Positions 9,826 through 30,542 of a stretch of DNA of 32,000 nucleotides are shown piece after piece. The first letter of the stretch is position 1. Every line of letters begins with the position of its first letter. Position numbers and translations under genes: made by a program. The notes below the pieces were generated by a model. That model had not been told where the DNA came from, did no database searches, and was given only the letters and a program-made list of their open reading frames with translations. This stretch comes from Acaryochloris marina MBIC11017 (GTDB taxonomy: Bacteria; Cyanobacteriota; Cyanobacteriia; Thermosynechococcales; Thermosynechococcaceae), in assembly GCF_000018105.1 (NCBI RefSeq), contig NC_009925.1, forward strand, positions 4,170,001 through 4,202,000. The letters run 5' to 3'.

Positions 9826-10764
9826 CTACGATTGCCGTTCCCGACTGAGCAAAGCCACACTAAAGGTGACCAAAATAACGCCGAAAATTTGCAGAGGCTT
9901 GAGGGTCTCTTGAATGGCGAACCAGGCCAGAACAACCGTTAACGCTGGATTGGTAGCCCCGATAATGGATGCCGTGGTGGCCCCAATTAAACGAATGCCC
10001 ATATTGTTGAGCAGATGCCCACTAGATGTGGCAATCGCTGACAACAAGCCCCCAATCCATAATGGCCCCCACTCAATGGCCTCAGGCTGTGTCCAGAACA
10101 GCAAGCTTAAACAGGACAAGACCAGCGTAACCGCAAAGCTAATCCAGGTATAGGGAATAGGATGGACCTGCTCAAAGCTTTTTTGAGCGAGAACCGTATA
10201 GATGGCATAGGCAACCCCTGAACCAATTCCCAAGCCAACCCCCAACGCATTAGCCGTTAATCCAGTTTGAGGAACCGTAAGGGCACTGCCGACCAGGACT
10301 AATCCCATGACCGTCCAGCGAAATCGGGAGGGCGCAGTACCAAAGAAGTACCAGGAGAGAAGGGCTGTAAAAACGGGAAAGGTGAAAAATAGGGTTAGGG
10401 CAATTCCGGTTGGAATCAGCCCCACTGAGAAATAGAGCAGTGCCAGGTAGAGGTACATAAATACGCCACCCAACAGAGATCGCATTAGGTCAGGACGATT
10501 CTGCTTTTGAGCCAGCTTTCTTAAGTCCCACCACAACGAAGGGTAAAACAGCGGTGTCATGGCTGATACCAACGGCACCACCCACACCATCCGCATCGCC
10601 ATTAACAAAAAAGAGTTGGGGAGAGAAGGGGCAACGAACCCTCCCGTTTGCAGCAGGCCAGCAACGGTGTATTCGTTAAAGAGAATGCGGACGATAACGT
10701 TTTGAAAACAAAAAAAGACGGCGCCCAGTAAGACGATCAGAAAACCAATCATAGTCTGGGGCAA
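9826..10764 (-). CDS. DMT-superfamily (EamA-type) permease
   Basis: The protein has about 10 hydrophobic helices in two similar halves. The ORF begins at a TTG at 10764, but the ATG at 10752 (MIGFLIVLLG) is the more likely start. Confidence 0.85.
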   Translation of the reverse strand: MPQTMIGFLIVLLGAVFFCFQNVIVRILFNEYTVAGLLQTGGFVAPSLPNSFLLMAMRMVWVVPLVSAMTPLFYPSLWWDLRKLAQKQNRPDLMRSLLGGVFMYLYLALLYFSVGLIPTGIALTLFFTFPVFTALLSWYFFGTAPSRFRWTVMGLVLVGSALTVPQTGLTANALGVGLGIGSGVAYAIYTVLAQKSFEQVHPIPYTWISFAVTLVLSCLSLLFWTQPEAIEWGPLWIGGLLSAIATSSGHLLNNMGIRLIGATTASIIGATNPALTVVLAWFAIQETLKPLQIFGVILVTFSVALLSRERQS

Positions 10765-11622: not shown

Positions 11623-12180
11623 ATGTATTGTTTTGGAGCAAAATCCGTGAACCCAAACCGTCTGCCTAAAATCGCCTTATCTTCTATCGTACTTTTGGGG
11701 GTGGTTTCTACCGTTCCCTCTATTACTCGCACCGGAGAAATAGCAACTGCTAATCCAGCATCTGAAGCTGCTGCCCCTACTGCAGCTATTTTTGCGGAAG
11801 ATGGGATTGCTATTCGCGGAACGGATCCAGTGGCATACTTTACAGAAGGTCGTCCTGTCCAAGGGGTCCAAGACTATGCCTATGAGTGGCAAGGGGTAAC
11901 CTGGCTATTTGCCAATGCCAAGCATCGAGACTTATTTGCGAGTAATCCAGAAGCCTATGCTCCTCAATATGGTGGATTCTGTGCCTATGGGGTGAGCCAA
12001 GGGGCGTTAGTTGCAATTGTGCCGGAAGCCTGGGCAATCGTGGATGGCAAGCTGTATTTGAACTTTAGTGCGGATGTGCAGCAGCTTTGGCAAGAAGATA
12101 TTCCTGGCTATATTTCCCAAGCGAATCAAACTTGGCCGACGTTAGCCTCTAAAAACGCCCAAAGCAACCTATCTTATTAG
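11623..12180 (+). CDS. Secreted/anchored YHS-domain-containing protein
   Basis: 185 aa. It has an N-terminal hydrophobic segment (KIALSSIVLLGVVSTVPS), followed by GTDPVAYFTEGRPVQG, WQGVTWLFANAKHRDLFASNPEAYAPQYGGFCAYGV and DGKLYLNF. This is typical of the family annotated as YHS domain-containing (seleno)protein. An alternative GTG start at 11647 is preceded by GGAG. Confidence 0.8.
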   Translation: MYCFGAKSVNPNRLPKIALSSIVLLGVVSTVPSITRTGEIATANPASEAAAPTAAIFAEDGIAIRGTDPVAYFTEGRPVQGVQDYAYEWQGVTWLFANAKHRDLFASNPEAYAPQYGGFCAYGVSQGALVAIVPEAWAIVDGKLYLNFSADVQQLWQEDIPGYISQANQTWPTLASKNAQSNLSY

Positions 12181-15981: not shown

Positions 15982-16683
15982 CTATAAAGACCAGGAAATG
16001 GGCTCAATGCCATTCTTTTGCAAATACGCATTAGCTTTAGAAAAATGCTGGTTGCCAAAGAAGCCCCGATGGGCGGATAGCGGTGATGGGTGGGGCGAGG
16101 TTAAAACTAGGTGCCGTCGACGGTCAATGATTTTCCCTTTCTGTTGGGCATAACTGCCCCATAGCAGAAATACAAGATGTTCGCGCTGTTGGTTTAAGGC
16201 ACTGATAATGGCATCGGTAAATTGCTCCCAACCTTTGTTTCGATGAGAGGCAGCTTTATGCTGCTCTACGGTGAGGACACTATTGAGTAGTAAAACACCT
16301 TGGGCTGCCCAACTTTGCAGGCAACCGTGTCTAGGTGGTTTAATCCCCAGGTCTTGTTCAATTTCTTTAAAAATATTGACTAAAGAAGGGGGTGGTGCAA
16401 CGCCCTCTGGAACGGAAAAGCATAAACCATGAGCTTGCCTGGGACCGTGATAGGGGTCTTGGCCAAGAATCACAACTTTGACGTGATCAAAAGGGGTACT
16501 ATCCATGGCATTGAACATCAGTGAGCCACGGGGGTAAATCGTTTTGCCAGCAGCCTTTTCTGCCTTGAGAAACTGTTTTAGCTCCTGCATATAGGACATG
16601 GCAAATACATGCTCCAGCACAGCTTTCCAGCTGGGGTCAAGTTTAATCGTGCTGCTAGAGGAGGGAGTGGCTTCTGTTGTCAT
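15982..16683 (-). CDS. ung: Uracil-DNA glycosylase (family 1)
   Basis: 233 aa. It has the catalytic GQDPYHG motif, LLLNSVLTV, and the HPSPLSA leucine-loop motif. Confidence 0.95.
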
Positions 16684-16992
16684 AAGAGGATCTGTCTGTC
16701 AAAGAAGAAGGAAATTCACTGATTTGGGGTTGTTTGGCAAAGGCGCAGTACTAAGGCTATTCAGCACCAATTAGTTGAGCTGCAACTTGAGTAACGAAAT
16801 ATTCATTACAACTATAGGGCCTTATCGGTAGAGTCTTAATGCGATCTCACCTTCAAAAGCCTTCATTCGTAATCGATACTATATTGACTTAAAAGATAAA
16901 TTGAAGTGTTTTTTTAACAGTCTGGCGAAATAATTCCTGTGATTCTCTAATCAAGAGTCAAAAATAATAGAGTTAGTGATTAAATAAGACAC

Positions 16993-17607
16993 TCAAAAAT
17001 CGATTCCACTTTCAGCGACTTTTTTTGCAATGATAGACGATAAAAATTTATTTACCGTTATTTCCAAAGTTTCTGCTCGTCTCAATAACTCATGCTTTAT
17101 GCATGGACACAACTCGTTCATCTCTAAGCTCATGGTATCTTCATAAGCCTTGGCTTTTGATGGCTCTGGCGCCCAAAGACGGACTAACTTATATAAGTGT
17201 ACTTTACCATTGAGGAAAGAAAGTAATGTTGGCAGCTTATCAAGGTCACTGCGGAAGAAACCAATAAATCCATCTGAATTGCTAATAGATGCAAGCCATG
17301 GAAATAGCAGATACCAAACATTACTAAACTCATCATCACTAGAGAGTCTGCGAACAGTGAGTTGATTGTTGTGAAAAGTACTTCCAAAATGTCCAGGTGG
17401 ATATTGTTCTCCTGCGACTGGATAATTATTTAGTATGGTTCGCCAGGGAATCCAATGCAAAGTGTCTTGAAAAAGGGGATGATCAATCCTGGGAGTTTCA
17501 AAAGTATATTCCTCCGAACGGGGCATATAGCGGAGGGTATTGCCTATTTCTTGTGAGACAGTATTCTTGATGCTGCAATCCATCGCAAATTCATAACAGA
17601 TACCCAT
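16993..17607 (-). CDS. Hypothetical protein (204 aa)
   Basis: This is an AT-rich ORF with no family recognised. The C-terminal ~45 aa (ELLRRAETLEITVNKFLSSIIAKKVAESG) look like a short helical or RHH-like tail, which is speculative. Confidence 0.55.
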   Translation of the reverse strand: MGICYEFAMDCSIKNTVSQEIGNTLRYMPRSEEYTFETPRIDHPLFQDTLHWIPWRTILNNYPVAGEQYPPGHFGSTFHNNQLTVRRLSSDDEFSNVWYLLFPWLASISNSDGFIGFFRSDLDKLPTLLSFLNGKVHLYKLVRLWAPEPSKAKAYEDTMSLEMNELCPCIKHELLRRAETLEITVNKFLSSIIAKKVAESGIDF

Positions 17608-17671
17608 ATGTTCACTGTTGTTGACGTGACATCTATATTCTCTGAAGTAGCTAATCGGGATAGTTTCTTAC

Positions 17672-17947
17672 TCAACTTCTATCTTGAGATGCTTCCAAAA
17701 AATACTCATAACAACCAAAATCAAATATGACTTGACTAAGTAGCAAGCGACTCAAATATCTAACGTGCTCTTCTTTTAGTGGATAGACAAAAACCATCTC
17801 TGGGTCTCCAGAAAGATCGAGACCGAATTCTATACTGAAGCTTTTGGGGTCAAAGTTTATGAGCTTGTATTCTTCAATAAAACTGTCTCCTTGGCGTTCG
17901 TAGACAGATAAGTAATGACAAGCTTTATGGGCAGGAGACTTGAGCAT
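17672..17947 (-). CDS. Small hypothetical protein (91 aa)
   Basis: This is an AT-rich ORF on the same strand as, and closely spaced with, its neighbours. No family could be assigned with confidence. Confidence 0.5.
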   Translation of the reverse strand: MLKSPAHKACHYLSVYERQGDSFIEEYKLINFDPKSFSIEFGLDLSGDPEMVFVYPLKEEHVRYLSRLLLSQVIFDFGCYEYFLEASQDRS

Positions 17948-17998
17948 ATGCGTACAGTATCAACAGATATCGGACTTTAGCGTAGCTATTGGACAGGC

Positions 17999-18436
17999 TC
18001 AATCAGTGACTGTGAGTTTAATATTGGCACCGTCTGGCAAGTCTTTTATCTGTTCCGCAAGATCGCCTGAGTATGCGATGACTTCTGCACGAGTCATAGT
18101 GTCGATATTATCTCGACTATATGCCCCTCCCCAAATACTAGGAACCTTCAAACAATAACAGTGTTCAGGTGGGAGCTTGCCGTAGAGTTCTTGCCCTATC
18201 TCAATAAGTGTGGACATTTCCCAATCGGTACGAAACTCTTCGTCATTAGAGAGTTCGTCCATCTCTTCAGCATTTGTAGCAATGATTTCACAGTACAGAT
18301 CTTCAGGACAAATTCGCCAGTATGTACCTACATCATCGAGAACAATCAAATTTCCAAAGTCATTTTGCGCGACAATCTTAGCCGCTTGAATCCCACACCA
18401 ACTCCAAGATTTCTGAACTGTGACCAGTAAATCCAT
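17999..18436 (-). CDS. Tdi1/DUF1851-like (T6SS-immunity-type) small protein
   Basis: 145 aa. The pattern FGNLIVLDDVGTYWRICPEDL, then CLKVPSIWGGAYSRDNI, then ...YSGDLAEQIKDLPDGA resembles the DUF1851 / Tdi1 C-terminal domain as I remember it. Confidence 0.55.
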   Translation of the reverse strand: MDLLVTVQKSWSWCGIQAAKIVAQNDFGNLIVLDDVGTYWRICPEDLYCEIIATNAEEMDELSNDEEFRTDWEMSTLIEIGQELYGKLPPEHCYCLKVPSIWGGAYSRDNIDTMTRAEVIAYSGDLAEQIKDLPDGANIKLTVTD

Positions 18437-18471
18437 ATTCTGAACTCAGGTTACGTAAAAGAGTGATCAAC

Positions 18472-19341
18472 TTAGGTTGCTTCGGTTGGAGATTTCTCCA
18501 AAATGGCCAGTGCGATTCCTCCCAGAATGGCACTGGACGCCACCACTAGGCGTAGGGTTAGATTTTCACCGAGAAAAAGTATTCCTCCTGCAGCAGCAAT
18601 GACGGGAACACTGAGTTGGACCGTCGCTGCAGACGTTGCCGTCAAATCTTTTAAGGCCGTGTACCAAATGGTATATCCCAGACCTGACGTGACGGCACCC
18701 GCTGCGACTGCATATAGACAGCCTGCCAAGGTTAACGACGTTTCGGAAATCATCGATAGACTCAGTCCCACAGTAAATGGGACTGCTCTTAAAAAGTTGC
18801 CAGCCGTCATTTCCATAGGGTTGCTAGCCGTTTTGCCGCGTAAAGAATAAATCCCCCAGGCAATGCCTGCAGCGATCATCAGGGCAGAACTTTGGAGCGG
18901 GGGAGCCGAAAGACCCGGTAATAGAAATCCTACTAGACCCAACAGCGCCAAAATGAAACCAGCAATTTGCTGCTTGCTTAAACGTTCTCCAGTCCAAAAT
19001 CCATATCCGATCATGGTGATCTGTACTGCCCCAAAAAGCAGTAACGCCCCCGTACCAGCAGCTAGCTTGATATAAGCAAACGAAAAGCCTGCTGCATAGA
19101 TAAAAAGTGCTAATGCAGAAGTCCAACTGCCTTCAACTTTAAGGCTTCTACCCTTTATTTGTGTGATCAATCCTAGGATAATCGCACCGGAGATGAGCCG
19201 AAGTGATGTAAAGGTTGCTGCATCAATGGGCGTTTCTCTAAGCGCTAACCGACACAGGATAGAATTTCCGGCAAAGGCAAGCATCGCTAGTAAAGTCAGG
19301 GTAAAAACCCGTGGATGAGACATCCCATCAGTCCTCAGCAA
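18472..19341 (-). CDS. DMT-superfamily (EamA-type) permease
   Basis: It has ten hydrophobic segments and EamA-like halves. The ORF opens with a TTG at 19341, and the ATG at 19323 (MSHPRVFTLTLL) is the likelier start. Confidence 0.85.
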   Translation of the reverse strand: MLRTDGMSHPRVFTLTLLAMLAFAGNSILCRLALRETPIDAATFTSLRLISGAIILGLITQIKGRSLKVEGSWTSALALFIYAAGFSFAYIKLAAGTGALLLFGAVQITMIGYGFWTGERLSKQQIAGFILALLGLVGFLLPGLSAPPLQSSALMIAAGIAWGIYSLRGKTASNPMEMTAGNFLRAVPFTVGLSLSMISETSLTLAGCLYAVAAGAVTSGLGYTIWYTALKDLTATSAATVQLSVPVIAAAGGILFLGENLTLRLVVASSAILGGIALAILEKSPTEAT

Positions 19342-21051: not shown

Positions 21052-21330
21052 ATGGATAGCACTGCTATTTCCGTGGTTGAGTGGGTGATTAATCTGGTGC
21101 GAGCTTATGCGATCGCAGGTTTGATCTTCGCGCTTCTGTTCGTTACCTTTTTGGTCAAGCGGGTTGATTCAGGTGCTCAAGGTTGGGCCATTGGCTTCCG
21201 AATTCTGATTATTCCGGGGGTGGTTGCATTTTGGCCAATGTTCGCGGTGCGCCTGTTGCGCGGCAAAGGCCATCCCACCGAAAAGAACGCCCATCGCCTA
21301 GCTGCCAAGCAAAGTGCAGGAGCCTCATAA
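21052..21330 (+). CDS. Small two-TM membrane protein (92 aa)
   Basis: The ATG at 21052 is preceded by GAAGGTAG. There are two hydrophobic helices (AIAGLIFALLFVTFLV and FRILIIPGVVAFWPMFAV). Its stop overlaps the next start (TAATG). Confidence 0.6.
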   Translation: MDSTAISVVEWVINLVRAYAIAGLIFALLFVTFLVKRVDSGAQGWAIGFRILIIPGVVAFWPMFAVRLLRGKGHPTEKNAHRLAAKQSAGAS

Positions 21331-21848
21331 TGGTCATTTCTCGCCGGCAGGTTCACCTCTATTCCTTTGTGATTCTGGCGATTGTGCTGCCCCTCTGTTT
21401 TGTTGCAGGTTTAGTCTGGCGACCCACCTTTGCTCCAGTGGACGCCTCAGCGGATGCCTTATTTCAACGAGCAGGATTTGCCCCCTACTCCAGTTGGGAG
21501 AATCAGGAGTCGAAACGCAAACCCACGCTTCTCCAGCAAGAGAACATTCAACTCCAGATTGAAACCTTGTTTGCTCAAGCTAGCAACGATGTCTTTCTCA
21601 AGATTCAGCCCCAGTCAGATCTGCAGCTACCGGATGTGTTGGTGTATTGGCAACCCGGAACGCCACCGGAACAGTTGAGTGAGACTTCGATCTTATTAGG
21701 GGCGTTGTCGGGTGTATCGAATCGCCAATTCCTGATTCCAGAAGCCATGCAGGGGCAACCAGGGCACCTACTTCTATTCAGTCAGGCCACTAAAGAAATC
21801 ATCTCTGCGTTTCCCCTAGATCCTGATTTGACCCAACCTGAACGCTAA
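21330..21848 (+). CDS. Membrane-anchored hypothetical protein (172 aa)
   Basis: The ATG at 21330 overlaps the upstream stop. An N-terminal TM anchor (LYSFVILAIVLPLCFVAGLVW) is followed by a soluble domain. The longer listed ORF (from 21183) overlaps the previous gene in another frame. Confidence 0.6.
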   Translation: MVISRRQVHLYSFVILAIVLPLCFVAGLVWRPTFAPVDASADALFQRAGFAPYSSWENQESKRKPTLLQQENIQLQIETLFAQASNDVFLKIQPQSDLQLPDVLVYWQPGTPPEQLSETSILLGALSGVSNRQFLIPEAMQGQPGHLLLFSQATKEIISAFPLDPDLTQPER

Positions 21849-21871: not shown

Positions 21872-22933
21872 GTGGGCGTTGCATATAAAGCGGTTCAGTG
21901 GAATCGGCAGAAGTTTGTTTACGACATTATTTTGCTGACCACGGTCGTTTTCTATCTCTTTTTCTTTGAGGGGATTAGCCTTCACTTTAGTAGTGATCTA
22001 GATATTAAAGGGATTTGGATTCGGGCCTTTGGCTCTGCTGCCTTTATCCTCCTCCATGTCATTCTGTCCATTGGCCCCCTCAGCCGCCTTAGCCCCAAGT
22101 TTTTGCCCCTCCTCTACAATCGGCGGCATATGGGCGTCACCATGTTTATTCTGGCTCTACTCCATGCTCGAGATGCTTTGGCCTGGTATCACGACTTTGG
22201 CAACCTAGAACCTATTGTCAGCCTGTTTGTCAGCAATACTCACTATGCTGATTTTATTCGTTTCCCCTTTGAAGCCCTGGGGGGTGTGGCCCTTGTTATC
22301 TTGTTTTTGATGGCGGCGACGAGCCATGATTTTTGGCTCACTAACCTGACCGCGCCTGTGTGGAAAGCCCTGCATATGGGAGTCTACTTAGCCTATGGCT
22401 TATTAGTGGGGCATGTGGTGTTAGGGGCCTTAGAAACCAATACCCATCCCTTGCTCACCTTGGCCGTTGGCGTTGGCTTTGTGTGGATTGTGGGGATTCA
22501 CCTGATCACTGCTCTGCGAGAAGCACAAAAAGATGGCGCACCGCTGTTTGGACCCCCGGCCCAGCCCCAAGTGGATGCGGATGGCTTTATCCATGTGGGC
22601 AGTGTGCAAGATATTCCTGAGAATCGCGCCAAAATTGCGGTCGTTGCTGGGGAGCGGGTGGCCATCTTTAAATATGAAGGCAAAATCTCGGCTATTTCCA
22701 ATGTGTGCCAGCATCAAAATGGCCCGTTAGGAGAAGGTAAGATTGTCGATGGCTGTATCACATGTCCTTGGCATGGATATCAATATTTGCCAGAGAGCGG
22801 GATTTCTCCACCACCCTTTACGGAAAAAATCCCTACGTTTAATGTCAAACTCCAGGGCGATCAGATTCTAGTCAGCGCTAAGCCTAATCTTCCTGGAACC
22901 CCTGTTGTCCCTGCTGTTATTGGCCAAGTGTAG
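21872..22933 (+). CDS. Fusion protein: ferric-reductase-like 6-TM di-heme domain + C-terminal Rieske [2Fe-2S] domain
   Basis: 353 aa with a GTG start. There are six hydrophobic helices. His pairs lie within helices 3 and 5 (HMGVTMFILALLH and HMGVYLAYGLLVGH, 12-13 residues apart), as in FRD/NOX/MsrQ-type cytochromes b. The C-terminus carries a canonical Rieske motif, CQH-x16-CPWH. Confidence 0.85.
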   Translation: MGVAYKAVQWNRQKFVYDIILLTTVVFYLFFFEGISLHFSSDLDIKGIWIRAFGSAAFILLHVILSIGPLSRLSPKFLPLLYNRRHMGVTMFILALLHARDALAWYHDFGNLEPIVSLFVSNTHYADFIRFPFEALGGVALVILFLMAATSHDFWLTNLTAPVWKALHMGVYLAYGLLVGHVVLGALETNTHPLLTLAVGVGFVWIVGIHLITALREAQKDGAPLFGPPAQPQVDADGFIHVGSVQDIPENRAKIAVVAGERVAIFKYEGKISAISNVCQHQNGPLGEGKIVDGCITCPWHGYQYLPESGISPPPFTEKIPTFNVKLQGDQILVSAKPNLPGTPVVPAVIGQV

Positions 22934-22935
22934 CG

Positions 22936-23700
22936 ATGAGTCGCCTCGATTCCCACGATGAATTTTTTATTGGCTATCTAGGGGTGCCGCCCCAATTAAA
23001 ACGATTTTTGCTGGGGTTGATTCCCGTCCTAGTGTTAGGTGCATTAGCCTTTGCCTTTATTCTGCCCCCCTTACATTTTGATCACTTCAATTTGGGTAAA
23101 CGGACCAAAGTCCCTGAATTTGAAGGACTGCTGGTCGGGGAACCCTCTCCCCACCTCTTGGTGCCCAGAACGGGAGGCGTGGGTACTGTGAGTGATTTTT
23201 CCCTCTATCTCCTATCAGGAACAGGCAAAACCTCCCCTAAGCCCAAGGTGCTGGAGCATGTGGATAAATGGGTGAAACTGAAAGGCACCCCTTTCCACCG
23301 CAATCACTTAACAGTGATTGCCACCAAATCAGCGGAACCAATCGACCGTCCGACCTCGAGACCGACCCAACCTGCGGAAGGTAGCTCTCTTGGCGAGTTT
23401 TCCCTAAAAGGAGAAATTGTAGATGGCAAATGCTACCCCGGTGTGATGAAACCTGGACGGACAAAAACCCATCGCTCTTGTGCTATCCGCTGCATCGCCG
23501 GGGGAGTACCTCCCGTGTTTGTGGTCCATAATTCGGCGGGGGATAAACTCTATTTTTTGCTGTCGGATCTGGATGGAAAAGCAGTTAATGACAAGGTTTT
23601 AGACAGGGTGGCCGATCCTGTACAAATTACGGGAGAAGTGGTTCAATATGCGGATGCTTTTGTTCTGAAAGCGGATCCAGCCACCTATCAACTGTTGTAG
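22936..23700 (+). CDS. Membrane-anchored protein of unknown function with a C-x17-C-x3-C motif
   Basis: 254 aa, starting 2 nt after the upstream stop. It has one N-terminal TM helix (FLLGLIPVLVLGALAFAFILPP). The soluble domain contains GKCYPGVMKPGRTKTHRSCAIRCIAGGVPPVF. Confidence 0.7.
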   Translation: MSRLDSHDEFFIGYLGVPPQLKRFLLGLIPVLVLGALAFAFILPPLHFDHFNLGKRTKVPEFEGLLVGEPSPHLLVPRTGGVGTVSDFSLYLLSGTGKTSPKPKVLEHVDKWVKLKGTPFHRNHLTVIATKSAEPIDRPTSRPTQPAEGSSLGEFSLKGEIVDGKCYPGVMKPGRTKTHRSCAIRCIAGGVPPVFVVHNSAGDKLYFLLSDLDGKAVNDKVLDRVADPVQITGEVVQYADAFVLKADPATYQLL

Positions 23701-24690
23701 ATGCCCTCACTGTCCTTCTCGGCGATTAATCCCAAACTTGCGTTAGTGATCTCCAGAGCCTTGGCGGCATTGCGGCCTTCTCTGATTGCTTTTTTGGTTG
23801 CCAATGCCATGTTGCTGAGTGGCGGCACCCAAACGCCCATCTCCTTTTGTAATGTCTTATTTGTGGGCAATTTATGCGCAGCCTTAGCTGTGGGAACCTG
23901 GTTTGGCTGGCGCTCTTTGATCCAAGATTGGCGGAGCCTGGATCGACGCATTCAGGTGGGGCTGTTTTTGAACGGCGGTTTAGCTGCCCTCCTTTCTTCT
24001 TTGATTTTTGTGGGATTGGCCTATACGTCCGTGACGAATGCGGTTTTGTTGGGACGTCTTGGCCCTGTCATCTATGCATTGGTTGGCACCCTGATTTTAG
24101 GCCGCAAAATCAAGCGATTTGAATGGATTGGGTTTTCCTTGATTATTGCGGGGGTATTGGCGATTGTGCTGAAGACCAGCAACTTTGAGATTAATCAGGG
24201 CGATCTATTCATTCTGCTGTCGGCCTTGGTCTATGCGGCCAGCTCCACCTTGGGGAAGCTGATGCTGTCTCAGCAGACGAATCTGCGCATTGTGGTGTTT
24301 AGCCGTAATCTTATTTCGGCCATCATCTTCTTTGTTATTGCTAATTTGGTGTTTGGCCCAGAGCATTTTATGGATGTGCTGGCAGGGCAACTGTGGATAG
24401 TGATGGTGGTCTATGCCCTAATCATTATTGTCTTGGCCCAATTTCTTTGGTATTCAGCCCTGGAGCAATTGAATTCGCAAACGGTAGGTAAATGGACGGC
24501 GTTGTCTCCAGTATTTGGGGTGACCTATGCCTTTGTGCTGAATGGTGAGCGGCCTTCCCTGGCTCAAGTTTTAGCGTTTCTGGTGATTATGGCAGGGATT
24601 TGTATAACGAGCTTTAATCGGCAGTCTTCTCGACCGATGGAAACTAACGAGATGGCCGATGGGGCTGAAAGCTGTATGTCTACGTCTTAG
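23701..24690 (+). CDS. DMT-superfamily (EamA-type) permease
   Basis: 329 aa. The ATG immediately follows the upstream TAG. It is a ten-helix hydrophobic protein with two EamA-like halves. Confidence 0.85.
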   Translation: MPSLSFSAINPKLALVISRALAALRPSLIAFLVANAMLLSGGTQTPISFCNVLFVGNLCAALAVGTWFGWRSLIQDWRSLDRRIQVGLFLNGGLAALLSSLIFVGLAYTSVTNAVLLGRLGPVIYALVGTLILGRKIKRFEWIGFSLIIAGVLAIVLKTSNFEINQGDLFILLSALVYAASSTLGKLMLSQQTNLRIVVFSRNLISAIIFFVIANLVFGPEHFMDVLAGQLWIVMVVYALIIIVLAQFLWYSALEQLNSQTVGKWTALSPVFGVTYAFVLNGERPSLAQVLAFLVIMAGICITSFNRQSSRPMETNEMADGAESCMSTS

Positions 24691-27554: not shown

Positions 27555-28649
27555 GTGGAATTTTTGACCAATTTTATGACGCTCTTCCTGTCGAAGTTGC
27601 AGTCGCCAACCCTAGGCTTCCTGATCGGTGGTATGGTCGTTGCCGCCGTCCATAGCCGCCTACAAATCCCCGATGCGATCTACAAGTTCATCGTCTTTAT
27701 GCTGCTGATCAAAGTCGGTCTGAGCGGTGGGATTGCGATTCGCAATGCCAATTTAGCGGAAATGCTATTGCCTGCAGTGTTCGCCATGATAGTAGGGATC
27801 TTGATCGTGTTTATCGGGCGCTATACCTTAGCGAAGATGCCAAACGTCAAAACCGTTGATGCCATTGCCACCGCAGGTTTGTTCGGTGCCGTTAGTGGTT
27901 CTACCCTTGCCGCCGCCCTGACGTTACTGGAAACAGAAGGTATCACCTACGAACCCTGGGCCGCCGCCCTCTATCCCTTTATGGATATCCCAGCCTTGGT
28001 GACGGCGATCGTCTTGGCGAGTGTTTATCTCAGTAAGCAGCGTGATTTCGCAGATGAACCCCTGAGCAAGCAGGAGTATCTCGGCACTCCAGGCGGTACC
28101 GCCGTCGAGTATCGGCGTAAGCAACGCAGTACTGCCCCCAAGCGGGTTAAAGTATGGCCCATTATCAAGGACAGCCTTCAAGGCTCTGCCCTATCAGCCC
28201 TGCTGCTGGGCCTCGCTTTAGGTATACTTACACGGCCAGAAAGTGTTTATGAGAGTTTCTTTAATCCCCTCTTTCGCGGCCTGCTTTCGATCCTAATGTT
28301 GGTTATGGGGATGGAGGCAACGGCCAGAATCAGCGAGTTGCGTAAGGTGGGCCAGTGGTATGCCCTATATGCCTTTGTGGGGCCGCTTGTTCATGGGTTG
28401 ATTGCTTTTGGACTTGGTTGGATTGCCCATATCATCACAGGATTTAGCCCCGGCGGCTGTGTGATTCTAGCCGTTATCGCGTCTTCCAGTTCAGATATCT
28501 CAGGGCCGCCCACGTTACGGGCGGGTATTCCGTCAGCGAATCCCTCCGCTTATATCGGCTCGTCCACTGCCGTCGGCACACCGGTTGCACTGGCTTTGGG
28601 AATCCCCCTCTACATCGGACTTGCCCAAGCGCTGATGGGGGGGAGCTGA
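27555..28649 (+). CDS. sbtA: Sodium-dependent bicarbonate transporter SbtA
   Basis: 364 aa. It is near-collinear with Synechocystis SbtA as I remember it (MEFLTNFMTLFLSKLQSPTLGFLIGGMVVAA, GLFGAVSGST, YPFMDIPALVTAIV). The GTG start has a GGAGG SD. Confidence 0.93.
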   Translation: MEFLTNFMTLFLSKLQSPTLGFLIGGMVVAAVHSRLQIPDAIYKFIVFMLLIKVGLSGGIAIRNANLAEMLLPAVFAMIVGILIVFIGRYTLAKMPNVKTVDAIATAGLFGAVSGSTLAAALTLLETEGITYEPWAAALYPFMDIPALVTAIVLASVYLSKQRDFADEPLSKQEYLGTPGGTAVEYRRKQRSTAPKRVKVWPIIKDSLQGSALSALLLGLALGILTRPESVYESFFNPLFRGLLSILMLVMGMEATARISELRKVGQWYALYAFVGPLVHGLIAFGLGWIAHIITGFSPGGCVILAVIASSSSDISGPPTLRAGIPSANPSAYIGSSTAVGTPVALALGIPLYIGLAQALMGGS

Positions 28650-28677: not shown

Positions 28678-29094
<417 letters not shown>

Positions 29095-29164: not shown

Positions 29165-30542
29165 TAGTCCTAGATTTTGAAGATAACCCATCAGTTATGC
29201 AAAATTGTACAGACATCAGATAGTTTCAGAGAAACCCTCTTGTTCAAGATCCTTTCTCTGCCAATGCCAACTCCCAAAGCCACTCCTATTGAGCTATCAC
29301 AGCAACAACACCATTGTTTGCTACAAATTGTTCGACAAACCATCAATCCTTATCGCTTGGTGCGTCGAGCGAGCATCATCCTATCAGCCGCCTCAGGCAA
29401 AAGTAACACCCAGATTAGCCGTCAATGGCAACTCGACCGCAACCAAGTTCGCTATTGGCGTCAGCGCTGGGTAGATAACCAAGAGCGTCTTGCCCTTTGT
29501 GAGCAAGTAGACGACAGCAAACCAGCATTGAACCAGCAAGTGTTGGCGACCTTAACAGATGCCCCACGTCAAGGTGTCCCACCCACCTTTACCCCAGAGC
29601 AGGTGGTCCAAATTGTGGCCATTGCCTGTGAATCTCCTCAGAACTCAGCCCGGCCTGTGAGTCAATGGACGCCTGAAGAGATTGCTGATGAAGCGATTAA
29701 ACGCGGCATCGTCCCTCACCTGTCGGCCAGCAGTGTGAGACGTTTTTTGGGGAGAGGCTGAGCTGCAGCCTCATCGGAGTCGCTATTGGCTCAATGCTAA
29801 CCCTGAGGAACCAGAAGCGTTCGAGGCGAAAGTGCGCCAGGTTTGCCAACTGTATGAATCAGCAGCTGAACTGGAAGCTCACCAGATTCACCTTGTTAGT
29901 ACGGATGAAATGACTGGCATTCAGGCGCTTGAACGACTGCACCCAGACCAAGCTATGCAACCAGGTCAACCGCGTCGTTTGGAATTTGAATATGAGCGGC
30001 ATGGTACCCTCAGTCTCATCGCCAACTGGCATGTGGCTCTGGGAAAGGTGATTGCGCCTTCTATCGGACCCACGCGAAAAGAATTTGACTTTGCCAATCA
30101 TATTGCCAAGACAGTTGAAACAGCACCGGACGATGGGTGGGTTTTTCTGCTCGACCAGCTCAATACCCATCGATCTGCTTCCCTTGTGCGATGGGTCGCT
30201 GTCTGTTGCGGTATTGATTCAGATTTAGGCGTTAAGGGTCAATCTGGTATCCTTCAATCGATGGAAACTCACACGGCCTTCTTGAGCGACCCCAGCCATC
30301 GGATCCGATTTGTTTATATCCCCAAACATACCTCCTGACTCAATCAGATTGAATGCTGGTTTAGTATTTTGGTGCGTCGATTGATTCGTCGAGGAAATTT
30401 CACCTCCACGGATGATTTGCAACAGCGCATCCTCGATTTTATTGAATATTTCAATCACACTATGGCCAAACCTTTCCAGTGGCAATTTAAGGGATTCACG
30501 CCGCATGGATAACTGATGAACTATTTACAGATCTATGGACTA
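29165..30542 (+). mobile_element. IS630-family insertion sequence with flanking TA duplication
   Basis: The imperfect terminal inverted repeats are about 34 bp: TA|GTCCTAGATTTTGAAGATAACCCATCAGTTAT at the left and ATAACTGATGAACTATTTACAGATCTATGGAC|TA at the right. About 23-25 positions match by hand alignment. TA lies at both ends (29165-29166 and 30541-30542), and the element encloses a DDE transposase. Confidence 0.8.
29264..30512 (+). pseudogene. IS630-family transposase, disrupted (1-nt frame shift near 29743-29752 plus an in-frame TGA at 30336-30338)
   Basis: The N-terminal HTH part ends ...SVRRFLG, then the frame is lost in a T6G4 run. Removing one nt restores RRFLGEAELQPHRSRYWLN. Downstream, ...FVYIPKHTS*LNQIECWFSILVRRL continues in the same frame to PHG* at 30510-30512. 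The TGA sits where IS630 transposases have the conserved Trp of S-W-L-N-x-x-E. Confidence 0.8.

Follow-up and report, generated by a model that had tools for sequence, protein, structure and literature searches.

A Rieske-fused, MsrQ-like membrane protein of Acaryochloris marina and the conserved four-gene cassette around it, a putative redox module

Proteins built on the ferric reductase domain (FRD), among them NOX, FRE, STEAP and MsrQ, are the main known route by which cytoplasmic electrons travel outward through a single small membrane domain, and MsrQ is the only characterised bacterial member that consists of this one domain. Under its other name, YedZ, it was also the only characterised bacterial FRD member as of Zhang et al. 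(2013, PLoS One 8:e58126; PMC3591440). The same work describes the heme ligands of the superfamily: the His residues of NOX2 are spaced by 14 in the third transmembrane (TM) helix (His101/His115) and by 13 in TM5 (His209/His222), in NOX proteins the inner heme is ligated in TM3 by a His that precedes the outer one by 14 residues, and in a signature shared by YedZ and STEAP the first canonical heme His is replaced by a conserved Arg (PMC3591440). MsrQ and the STEAPs carry one outer heme plus an inner flavin; in MsrQ, R77 and R78 are each essential for binding flavin mononucleotide (FMN), H151 stabilises it, L131, S135 and W147 line its pocket (pocket residues and heme ligands having been defined by experiment or model), and the potentials are −340 mV for FMN and −256 mV for the heme (PMC12525009). 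Zhang et al. also listed Rieske among the 'electron transfer agent' accessory domains found on bacterial FRDs (their model M4; PMC3591440), and our full-text literature searches for a functional study of an FRD + Rieske fusion returned only this listing. Here we describe such a fusion, the FRD-Rieske protein, encoded at 21872..22933 in a 32,000-nucleotide (nt) stretch of Acaryochloris marina MBIC11017 (NC_009925.1, positions 4,170,001 to 4,202,000). This whole stretch is called the window below; all positions are given in its numbering, and features lie on the forward (+) strand unless stated otherwise. Our preferred reading, to which we assign a probability of roughly 0.55, is that FRD-Rieske would be the central subunit of a four-gene redox module: an MsrQ-type flavocytochrome with a cytoplasmic Rieske entry domain and with the product of the next gene, down1, as its outer partner.

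The open reading frame (ORF) encodes 353 amino acids (aa) from a GTG start, which is plausible because homologues of 344–384 aa cover 97–100% of it. Pfam placed a Ferric_reduct domain (PF01794) at aa 54–178 (22031..22405; E 3.9e-11, 43.5 bits against a cutoff of 28, positions 2–120 of the 121 in the hidden Markov model), inside a six-helix TM domain spanning aa 12–222, and a Rieske [2Fe-2S] domain (PF00355) at aa 240–320 (22589..22831; E 3.8e-15, 56 bits against a cutoff of 20.3), with weaker matches of Rieske_2 and Rieske_4 to the same protein. Both domains named in the original prediction, which had been made from the letters of the DNA, were thus recovered above their cutoffs, and the profile evidence supports membership of the ferric reductase family; fused long relatives, described below, likewise pass the PF01794 threshold. 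The fusion is confirmed as real, far beyond chance. An AlphaFold2 model (pLDDT 82.6, pTM 0.76) shows six helices (aa 12–39, 45–73, 75–109, 132–150, 161–189 and 193–222) followed by a beta domain, which bears out the six helices predicted earlier, whereas hydropathy alone gave five clear peaks, corresponding to TM1, 2, 4, 5 and 6. TM3 contains the pair H86-x11-H98 (HMGVTMFILALLH; H86 at 22127–22129, H98 at 22163–22165), TM5 the pair H168-x12-H181 (HMGVYLAYGLLVGH; H168 at 22373–22375, H181 at 22412–22414), and the Rieske domain the motif C279-Q-H281-x16-C298-P-W-H301, with its ligands C279, H281, C298 and H301 at 22706–22774. These four His and four Rieske ligands were invariant in alignments of 18 and 60 sequences (24 for the TM part) from many phyla; for the Rieske ligands and H98, H168 and H181 the phyla covered include cyanobacteria, Acidobacteriota, Verrucomicrobiota and others.

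From a His spacing of 12–13 residues, as in di-heme FRD/NOX proteins, it had been proposed that the two pairs ligate two stacked b hemes. The TM5 half of this comparison stood, since its spacing of 13 is that of NOX2, but the TM3 half did not: the pair is 12 residues apart where NOX2 has 14, the position 14 residues before H98 is occupied by an invariant Arg (R84), and the nearest His, H86, lies at −12. A profile of the TM domain built from 24 sequences was aligned by hhalign with E. coli MsrQ (probability 82%, E 1e-5), while the comparison with residues 1–295 of NOX2 (a sequence identical to PDB 8gz3_B) was not significant (probability 0.04, E 0.9). In the MsrQ alignment, H98 and H181 are equivalent to the heme ligands H91 and H164; in the inner pocket, R84/R85 (22121–22126) are equivalent to R77/R78, S151 to S135, W164 to W147, H168 to H151 and M147 to L131. 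Position 147 is Met or, in some members, Leu, and the other five pocket positions were invariant among the 24 sequences. H86 aligned with MsrQ Leu79 and, if the helix is ideal, would point some 200 degrees away from the canonical direction of the inner ligand. The NCBIfam equivalog model for MsrQ (NF003831) scored 34 bits, below its cutoff of 130, and the model for the MamZ C-terminus, which is its FRD part, likewise reached a sub-threshold 34 bits. Because R84 stands at the position of the canonical inner His, the MsrQ flavin pocket is conserved and H86 is out of register by two, two stacked hemes of the NOX type are less likely, and one outer heme held by H98 and H181 together with an inner flavin-type site appears the more likely arrangement, judged from these alignments.

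The family also carries His residues without a counterpart in E. coli MsrQ, namely H62 (22055–22057), H86, H107 (22190–22192), H152 (22325–22327) and H210 (22499–22501), all of them invariant or near-invariant. Four of the five are found with H168 in the inner-leaflet half of the TM domain, and two lie within HDF motifs (YHDFGN and SHDFW). When the PDB was searched by sequence with the TM-domain profile, nothing matched at E ≤ 10, and the 50 Foldseek matches listed for the full FRD-Rieske model were all to Rieske domains, with no structural match to the TM fold among them.

The topology was assessed from the distribution of charged residues: Lys and Arg averaged 12.5 in the predicted cytoplasmic segments vs 1.4 in the outer loops, and inside exceeded outside in 24 of 24 sequences. 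Both termini of the six-helix domain are predicted to be cytoplasmic. No export signal precedes the Rieske domain, and in the fused relatives a seventh TM helix follows it. Taken together, the positive-inside bias, the MsrQ homology, the seventh helix and the absence of an export signal make a cytoplasmic location of the Rieske domain well supported, in keeping with the original prediction. On the same evidence, the domain would occupy the site held by the dehydrogenase module in NOX/FRE or by the separate reductase Fre in the case of MsrQ, as had also been proposed, and Pfam found after TM6 only Rieske families and no domain of a dehydrogenase binding flavin adenine dinucleotide (FAD) or NADPH. 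The extra Cys pair found in the bc1/b6f Rieske proteins (CTHLGC / CPCH) is missing from the two boxes of this domain, CQHQNGP and CPWHGYQY. This disulfide-forming pair is the mark of the high-potential bc1/b6f proteins, and the motif of FRD-Rieske points to a ferredoxin-type domain of the low-potential class. Similarly, phmmer against the PDB matched Rieske-type ferredoxins of oxygenase systems (BphF, NDO ferredoxin, CarAc and T4moC) and mouse RFESD at E 4e-8 to 1e-3, and Foldseek gave target-normalised TM-scores of 0.77–0.89 to proteins of this kind, among them BphF (1fqt), NDO ferredoxin (2qpz) and CarAc.

Immediately downstream, starting 2 nt past the FRD-Rieske stop codon, lies down1 (22936–23700), which encodes 254 aa. 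Its AlphaFold2 model (pLDDT 88, pTM 0.78) consists of one TM helix, the anchor at aa 19–46 (22990–23073), and two beta-barrels; ahead of the anchor is an N-terminal cytoplasmic motif, DEFFIGY (aa 7–13; 22954–22974), and the alignment contains an invariant stretch, D163-K165-C166-G169-M171-G174-H179-C182-A183-C186-G190-P192 (23422–23511). By this model, down1 is a membrane-anchored extracytoplasmic tandem beta-barrel with an invariant Cys3/His/Met site. The connection between the two proteins was revealed by long forms of 563–668 aa, which account for 38 of the best 150 cluster representatives. In the five that were inspected (P0122, P0125, P0126, P0136 and P0156), the Rieske domain leads into a conserved [FY][FY][IV]G[YW] motif, after which come a seventh hydrophobic helix and a domain of ~230 aa. 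When down1 was compared with the C-terminal ~240 aa of one of them, the ~600-aa P0122, BLASTP gave 33% identity (E 1e-32), and the invariant Cys/His/Met stretch of down1 recurs in the inspected fused forms. Among the best 80 genome loci, 5 were fused (Acidimicrobiia, Acidobacteriota) and 73 split, and the window has the three modules of this protein in split form. The fusion in other lineages implies that FRD-Rieske and down1 work together, and, as a seventh TM helix separates them in the fused forms, the Rieske and beta-barrel domains would lie on opposite sides of the membrane. Before the down1 anchor, and directly after the Rieske domain in the fused proteins, stands the motif D[ED]F[YF][IV]G[YW], in which F10 is invariant and Y11 conserved in at least 90% of members; its probable role is that of a docking peptide by which the split subunits stay attached to each other. 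The existence of fused and split forms predicts a complex of FRD-Rieske and down1.

Candidates for the down1 site are a metal ion, a heme with Met/His ligands and a redox-active CxxxC. A homologue of down1 is Lepto7376_2303 of Leptolyngbya sp. PCC 7376. None of 156 homologues contained a Pfam domain, a sequence search of the PDB with the down1 profile gave no match at E ≤ 10, and Foldseek against the PDB and BFVD returned weak, generic OB-fold matches (query-normalised TM-score ~0.2). Tat export of down1 was also considered, as RR or KR precedes the anchor in many cyanobacterial members, and was rejected because this feature is not conserved elsewhere; since the twin-arginine motif is not conserved outside cyanobacteria, a pre-assembled Fe-S cluster in down1 is unlikely.

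Two further genes complete the set on the upstream side. The first, up2 (21052..21330), encodes ~92 aa with two TM helices; its start at ATG 21052 is supported by homology, the ORF itself opening at TTG 21025. The second, up1 (21330..21848), begins on the last base of the up2 stop codon and encodes 172 aa, made up of a TM anchor at the N-terminus and an outer domain of ~120 aa. The invariant residues in the alignments are Y19, G23, F26, F30, D39, F49 and W61 for up2 and R6, H9, P21, W107, G124, G145 and S151 for up1. No Pfam family was found in any of 30 up2 members or in any member of the up1 alignment, and for up1, up2 and down1 Pfam and NCBIfam gave no more than faint, sub-threshold matches to DUF5818 and DUF2970. 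Synteny was counted over the best 80 genome loci, on the same strand and with tight spacing. FRD-Rieske was present in 80/80, down1 lay downstream in 77/80 (at least two of the three misses being near a contig end), and up2 was found upstream in 78/80 by tblastn, directly adjacent and on the same strand; up1 was detected in 42/80 by tblastn and in 60/80 by clustering, in every case as the immediate upstream neighbour of FRD-Rieske. The order up2–up1–FRD-Rieske–down1 is thus a conserved four-gene cassette, described here for the first time. A tblastn search with E. coli MsrP found no match at E ≤ 1e-3 in the window or the 80 related loci, and a promoter and terminator scan of the cassette gave nothing above shuffled expectation.

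The spread of the family was surveyed, as the original prediction had proposed. A word-indexed protein search returned at least 8000 candidates, every scored one at E ≤ 1e-5. The best 120 all combined PF01794 with PF00355 and were 60–95% identical to the query; the named organisms among them were all cyanobacterial, and their database names were generic ('Rieske 2Fe-2S domain-containing protein', 'ferric reductase-like transmembrane domain-containing protein'). When the 50%-identity cluster representatives were searched exhaustively, 6384 clusters matched at E ≤ 1e-3, 232 of them at E ≤ 1e-30, and a scan of one genome per species found relatives in at least 588 species from many phyla, the closest among the genome matches listed being an Acaryochloris metagenome-assembled genome (MAG) with 89% identity. 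The best 80 genome loci came from cyanobacteria, Acidobacteriota, Verrucomicrobiota, Gemmatimonadota, Planctomycetota and Nitrospirota, and further from KSB1, Kiritimatiellae, Bacteroidota, Acidimicrobiia and one Chromatiaceae MAG. With such a distribution, and having been catalogued in 2013, the fusion had been overstated as 'unusual'; the FRD + Rieske architecture is catalogued, widespread and uncharacterised. Five close relatives among the cluster representatives that seemed to be without a Rieske domain (P0199, P0202, P0206, P0215 and P0226) were considered as domain swaps and rejected as assembly frameshifts, their C-terminal 100–140 aa being Arg/Pro-rich, out-of-frame translations of the Rieske region.

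The analysis shows the domain identities, the topology, the MsrQ-type register, the cassette and the gene fusion; from there we infer cofactors, donor, substrate and a path for the electrons. A cytoplasmic donor would reduce the tethered Rieske cluster, a built-in one-electron entry module that would replace both the FAD/NADPH module of NOX/FRE and the soluble Fre of MsrQ. The electron would then pass to an inner-leaflet cofactor in the pocket formed by R84, R85, M/L147, S151, W164 and H168, a flavin by homology though possibly a heme, and from there to the outer b heme between H98 (TM3) and H181 (TM5). Its last station would be the Cys3/His/Met site of down1 on the periplasmic or lumenal side; there, outside the cytoplasm, down1 presumably passes it on to a metal ion that it binds or to a thiol/disulfide substrate. 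Several points weigh against this scheme. It leaves the extra His residues (H62, H86, H107, H152 and H210) unexplained, and these could ligate a metal or another heme. In down1, the Cys3/His site might bind Zn for structural purposes only, like the OB fold of T4 gp32, and the conserved core encodes no reductase for the Rieske domain. A further caveat is energetic: Rieske ferredoxins typically have a potential of about −150 mV, so with MsrQ-like potentials transfer from the Rieske cluster to FMN and heme would be uphill; the flow must then run the other way, unless the potentials are retuned.

Reversed flow, in which down1 would oxidise a periplasmic donor and electrons would run through the heme and the inner cofactor to the Rieske cluster and a cytoplasmic acceptor, turns this caveat into an advantage, since at MsrQ-like potentials the step from the heme (−256 mV) to the Rieske cluster is downhill, and it sits well with a cassette in which no cytoplasmic reductase is conserved. 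All characterised FRD members (NOX, FRE, STEAP and MsrQ), however, send electrons from the cytoplasm to the outside (PMC3591440, PMC12525009). Rieske ferredoxins, moreover, are normally donors, and potentials are easily retuned, so that we regard a reversal as very unlikely. The NOX/FRE-like conduit of the original prediction, in which H86 and H168 would bind an inner b heme fed directly by the Rieske cluster and H98 and H181 an outer one, is a more substantial alternative, though still unlikely in our view. All four TM3/TM5 His are invariant in every sequence examined, H86, a family-specific gain (MsrQ has Leu79), calls for a function, a heme is a natural acceptor for a one-electron donor such as the Rieske cluster, and some short bacterial forms do keep four His (Zhang et al., PMC3591440). 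What stands in its way is the register set out above: H86 at −12 instead of −14 and some 200 degrees from the canonical inner ligand on an ideal helix, the MsrQ/STEAP signature Arg at the canonical position, conservation of the entire MsrQ flavin pocket, and a comparison with the NOX2 TM domain that was not significant.

The clustering of five conserved His and an Asp in the inner-leaflet half invites yet another explanation, a membrane-embedded catalyst in which the Rieske domain feeds a non-heme metal site (H62, H86, H152–D153 and H210) that acts on a lipid or other membrane substrate, comparable to the Rieske oxygenases. In Acidobacteriota and Verrucomicrobiota the cassette often adjoins OlsB-like, PlsC-like and DedA-like lipid genes, as this would lead one to expect; more than half of the loci, however, lack such genes, and cyanobacteria have none. 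Since the MsrQ heme ligands and flavin pocket are fully retained, and the close linkage and frequent fusion of a periplasmic partner speak for electrons being delivered outward, this is to us the least probable of the explanations, and the MsrQ-type flavocytochrome with outward flow to down1 is preferred.

Beyond the core, the neighbours change with lineage. An EamA-family transporter gene (23701..24690; Pfam EamA, 89.6 bits) begins on the very next base after the down1 stop codon, and such a gene stands directly downstream of the cassette in 10/18 cyanobacterial loci vs 1/62 others; it is a lineage-specific accessory of the cassette. Two more EamA-family genes lie in the window, at 9826–10764 (−) and 18472–19341 (−), the one at 23701–24690 (+) alone being linked to the cassette. 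Other cyanobacterial followers were a glutathione-synthase-like ATP-grasp protein (9/18) and an ArsN1/PPT-like GNAT protein (8/18). At the 62 non-cyanobacterial loci, the cassette was followed by OlsB-like GNAT (26 loci), DinB_2-like (22), ATP-grasp (19), MauE/DoxX-like (16), TANGO2-like (16) and DedA/VTT (15) proteins and by a YHS (seleno)protein (15), and an SDR gene was often found just upstream of up2 (18 loci). These accessory neighbours are lineage-specific and mostly sub-threshold for named families; taken as leads only, they hint at small-thiol, aminolipid or metal chemistry.

Some of these genes form a recurring set. After the core in eight Acidobacteriota/Verrucomicrobiota loci (L020, L038, L041, L047, L051, L052, L053 and L058; ~7.8–12.8 kb in each), an OlsB-like acyltransferase, a YHS protein, a MauE-like membrane protein and DinB_2-like, DedA/VTT and TANGO2-like proteins were found, the DedA/VTT protein in some cases carrying a fused alpha/beta hydrolase and ATP-grasp domain; a PlsC-like lipid gene is also among the cassette neighbours in these two phyla. 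The window has a YHS-domain gene of its own at 11623–12180, ~10 kb from the cassette and adjoining mfd. Its secreted product of 185 aa (Pfam YHS 24 bits, below cutoff) shows 44% identity across 119 aa (tblastn E 1e-34) with the YHS (seleno)protein of the extended cassette at the 15 non-cyanobacterial loci. Converging on the end of the cassette is a cytochrome P450 gene (24727–26112, −; Pfam p450, 180 bits), which tblastn found at one related locus and which is probably not part of the cassette system.

Elsewhere in the window, an SbtA-type Na+/bicarbonate transporter gene (27555–28649; Pfam Sbt_1, 312 bits) is followed by one for a P-II family protein (28690–29094), and the two look like a cyanobacterial sbtA/sbtB-like pair. 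An ORF matching HTH_32/HTH_23 (29177–29761) and a DDE_3 endonuclease ORF behind it (29832–30338) look like a transposase split into two reading frames. The stretch 16000–18500 is low in G+C (0.40–0.44 vs ~0.50 elsewhere) and contains a 204-aa ORF without a Pfam family (16993–17607) and an ORF (17999–18436) matching the C-terminal domain of Tdi1, an immunity protein of the type VI secretion system.

What is new here is the conserved four-gene module with its fused-or-split periplasmic partner, the fusion architecture itself being already known. The FRD-Rieske family, present in hundreds of species and at least ten major lineages, would represent a different wiring of FRD proteins, in which electrons enter through an iron-sulfur module and a dedicated partner without an assigned fold family stands on the outer face, and three of its four core genes belong to no Pfam family. 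Going further, and only tentatively, the cassette may constitute an undescribed, widespread extracytoplasmic reductase that runs from the Rieske domain through an MsrQ-like flavocytochrome to a new tandem beta-barrel with a Cys3/His/Met centre; this would be a third kind of dedicated FRD partner, beside MsrP and DOMON, with a role in metal reduction or trafficking or in periplasmic thiol chemistry. Identification of the substrate would add a new periplasmic redox function, and the fused entry module makes the protein a convenient, self-contained system for studying how the inner site of MsrQ and STEAP, whether flavin or heme, is fed.

Compared with known systems, FRD-Rieske is closest to MsrQ (YedZ) of the E. 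coli MsrPQ flavocytochrome b, with which it shares the six-TM FRD fold, the outer heme ligands, the Arg pair and the FMN-pocket residues, and, by our reading, the feeding of a dedicated extracytoplasmic partner encoded next door. It differs in having a fused cytoplasmic Rieske domain where MsrQ depends on the soluble Fre, in a partner that is a tandem beta-barrel with a Cys3/His/Met site and not the molybdoenzyme MsrP, in a score far below the equivalog cutoff (34 vs 130 bits) and in the extra invariant His (H62, H86, H107, H152 and H210). STEAP1–4 belong, by description, to the same FRD subgroup, in which Arg stands in for the first canonical His and a single outer heme is combined with an inner flavin, and STEAP2–4 likewise have a fused cytoplasmic electron-entry domain (PMC3591440, PMC12525009). 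That domain, however, is an N-terminal F420-type NADPH oxidoreductase where FRD-Rieske has a C-terminal Rieske domain; STEAP proteins also have Gln where the FRD-Rieske family and MsrQ have His (H168), and they reduce free Fe3+/Cu2+ complexes without a protein partner.

In the NOX/FRE proteins (NOX2, NOX5, SpNOX and yeast Fre1), as in FRD-Rieske, a six-TM FRD with the outer His pair in TM3/TM5 is followed by a cytoplasmic C-terminal entry module, but theirs is an FAD and NADPH module, with two hemes and His at −14, as opposed to a Rieske module and Arg at −14. The Rieske-type ferredoxins (BphF, CarAc, NDO ferredoxin and T4moC) and mouse RFESD have the same C-x-H-x16-C-x2-H motif without the bc1-type disulfide; those ferredoxins are soluble, stand-alone shuttles from a flavoprotein reductase to an oxygenase, whereas the domain described here is tethered to a membrane cytochrome and has neither a reductase nor an oxygenase conserved nearby. 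Model M4 of Zhang et al. (2013), finally, has the identical domain architecture, FRD + Rieske, as a catalogue entry without topology, cofactor register, gene context or partner (PMC3591440), and to that entry the present analysis adds a predicted cytoplasmic Rieske domain, an MsrQ-type register, a conserved four-gene cassette and down1 as the likely partner.

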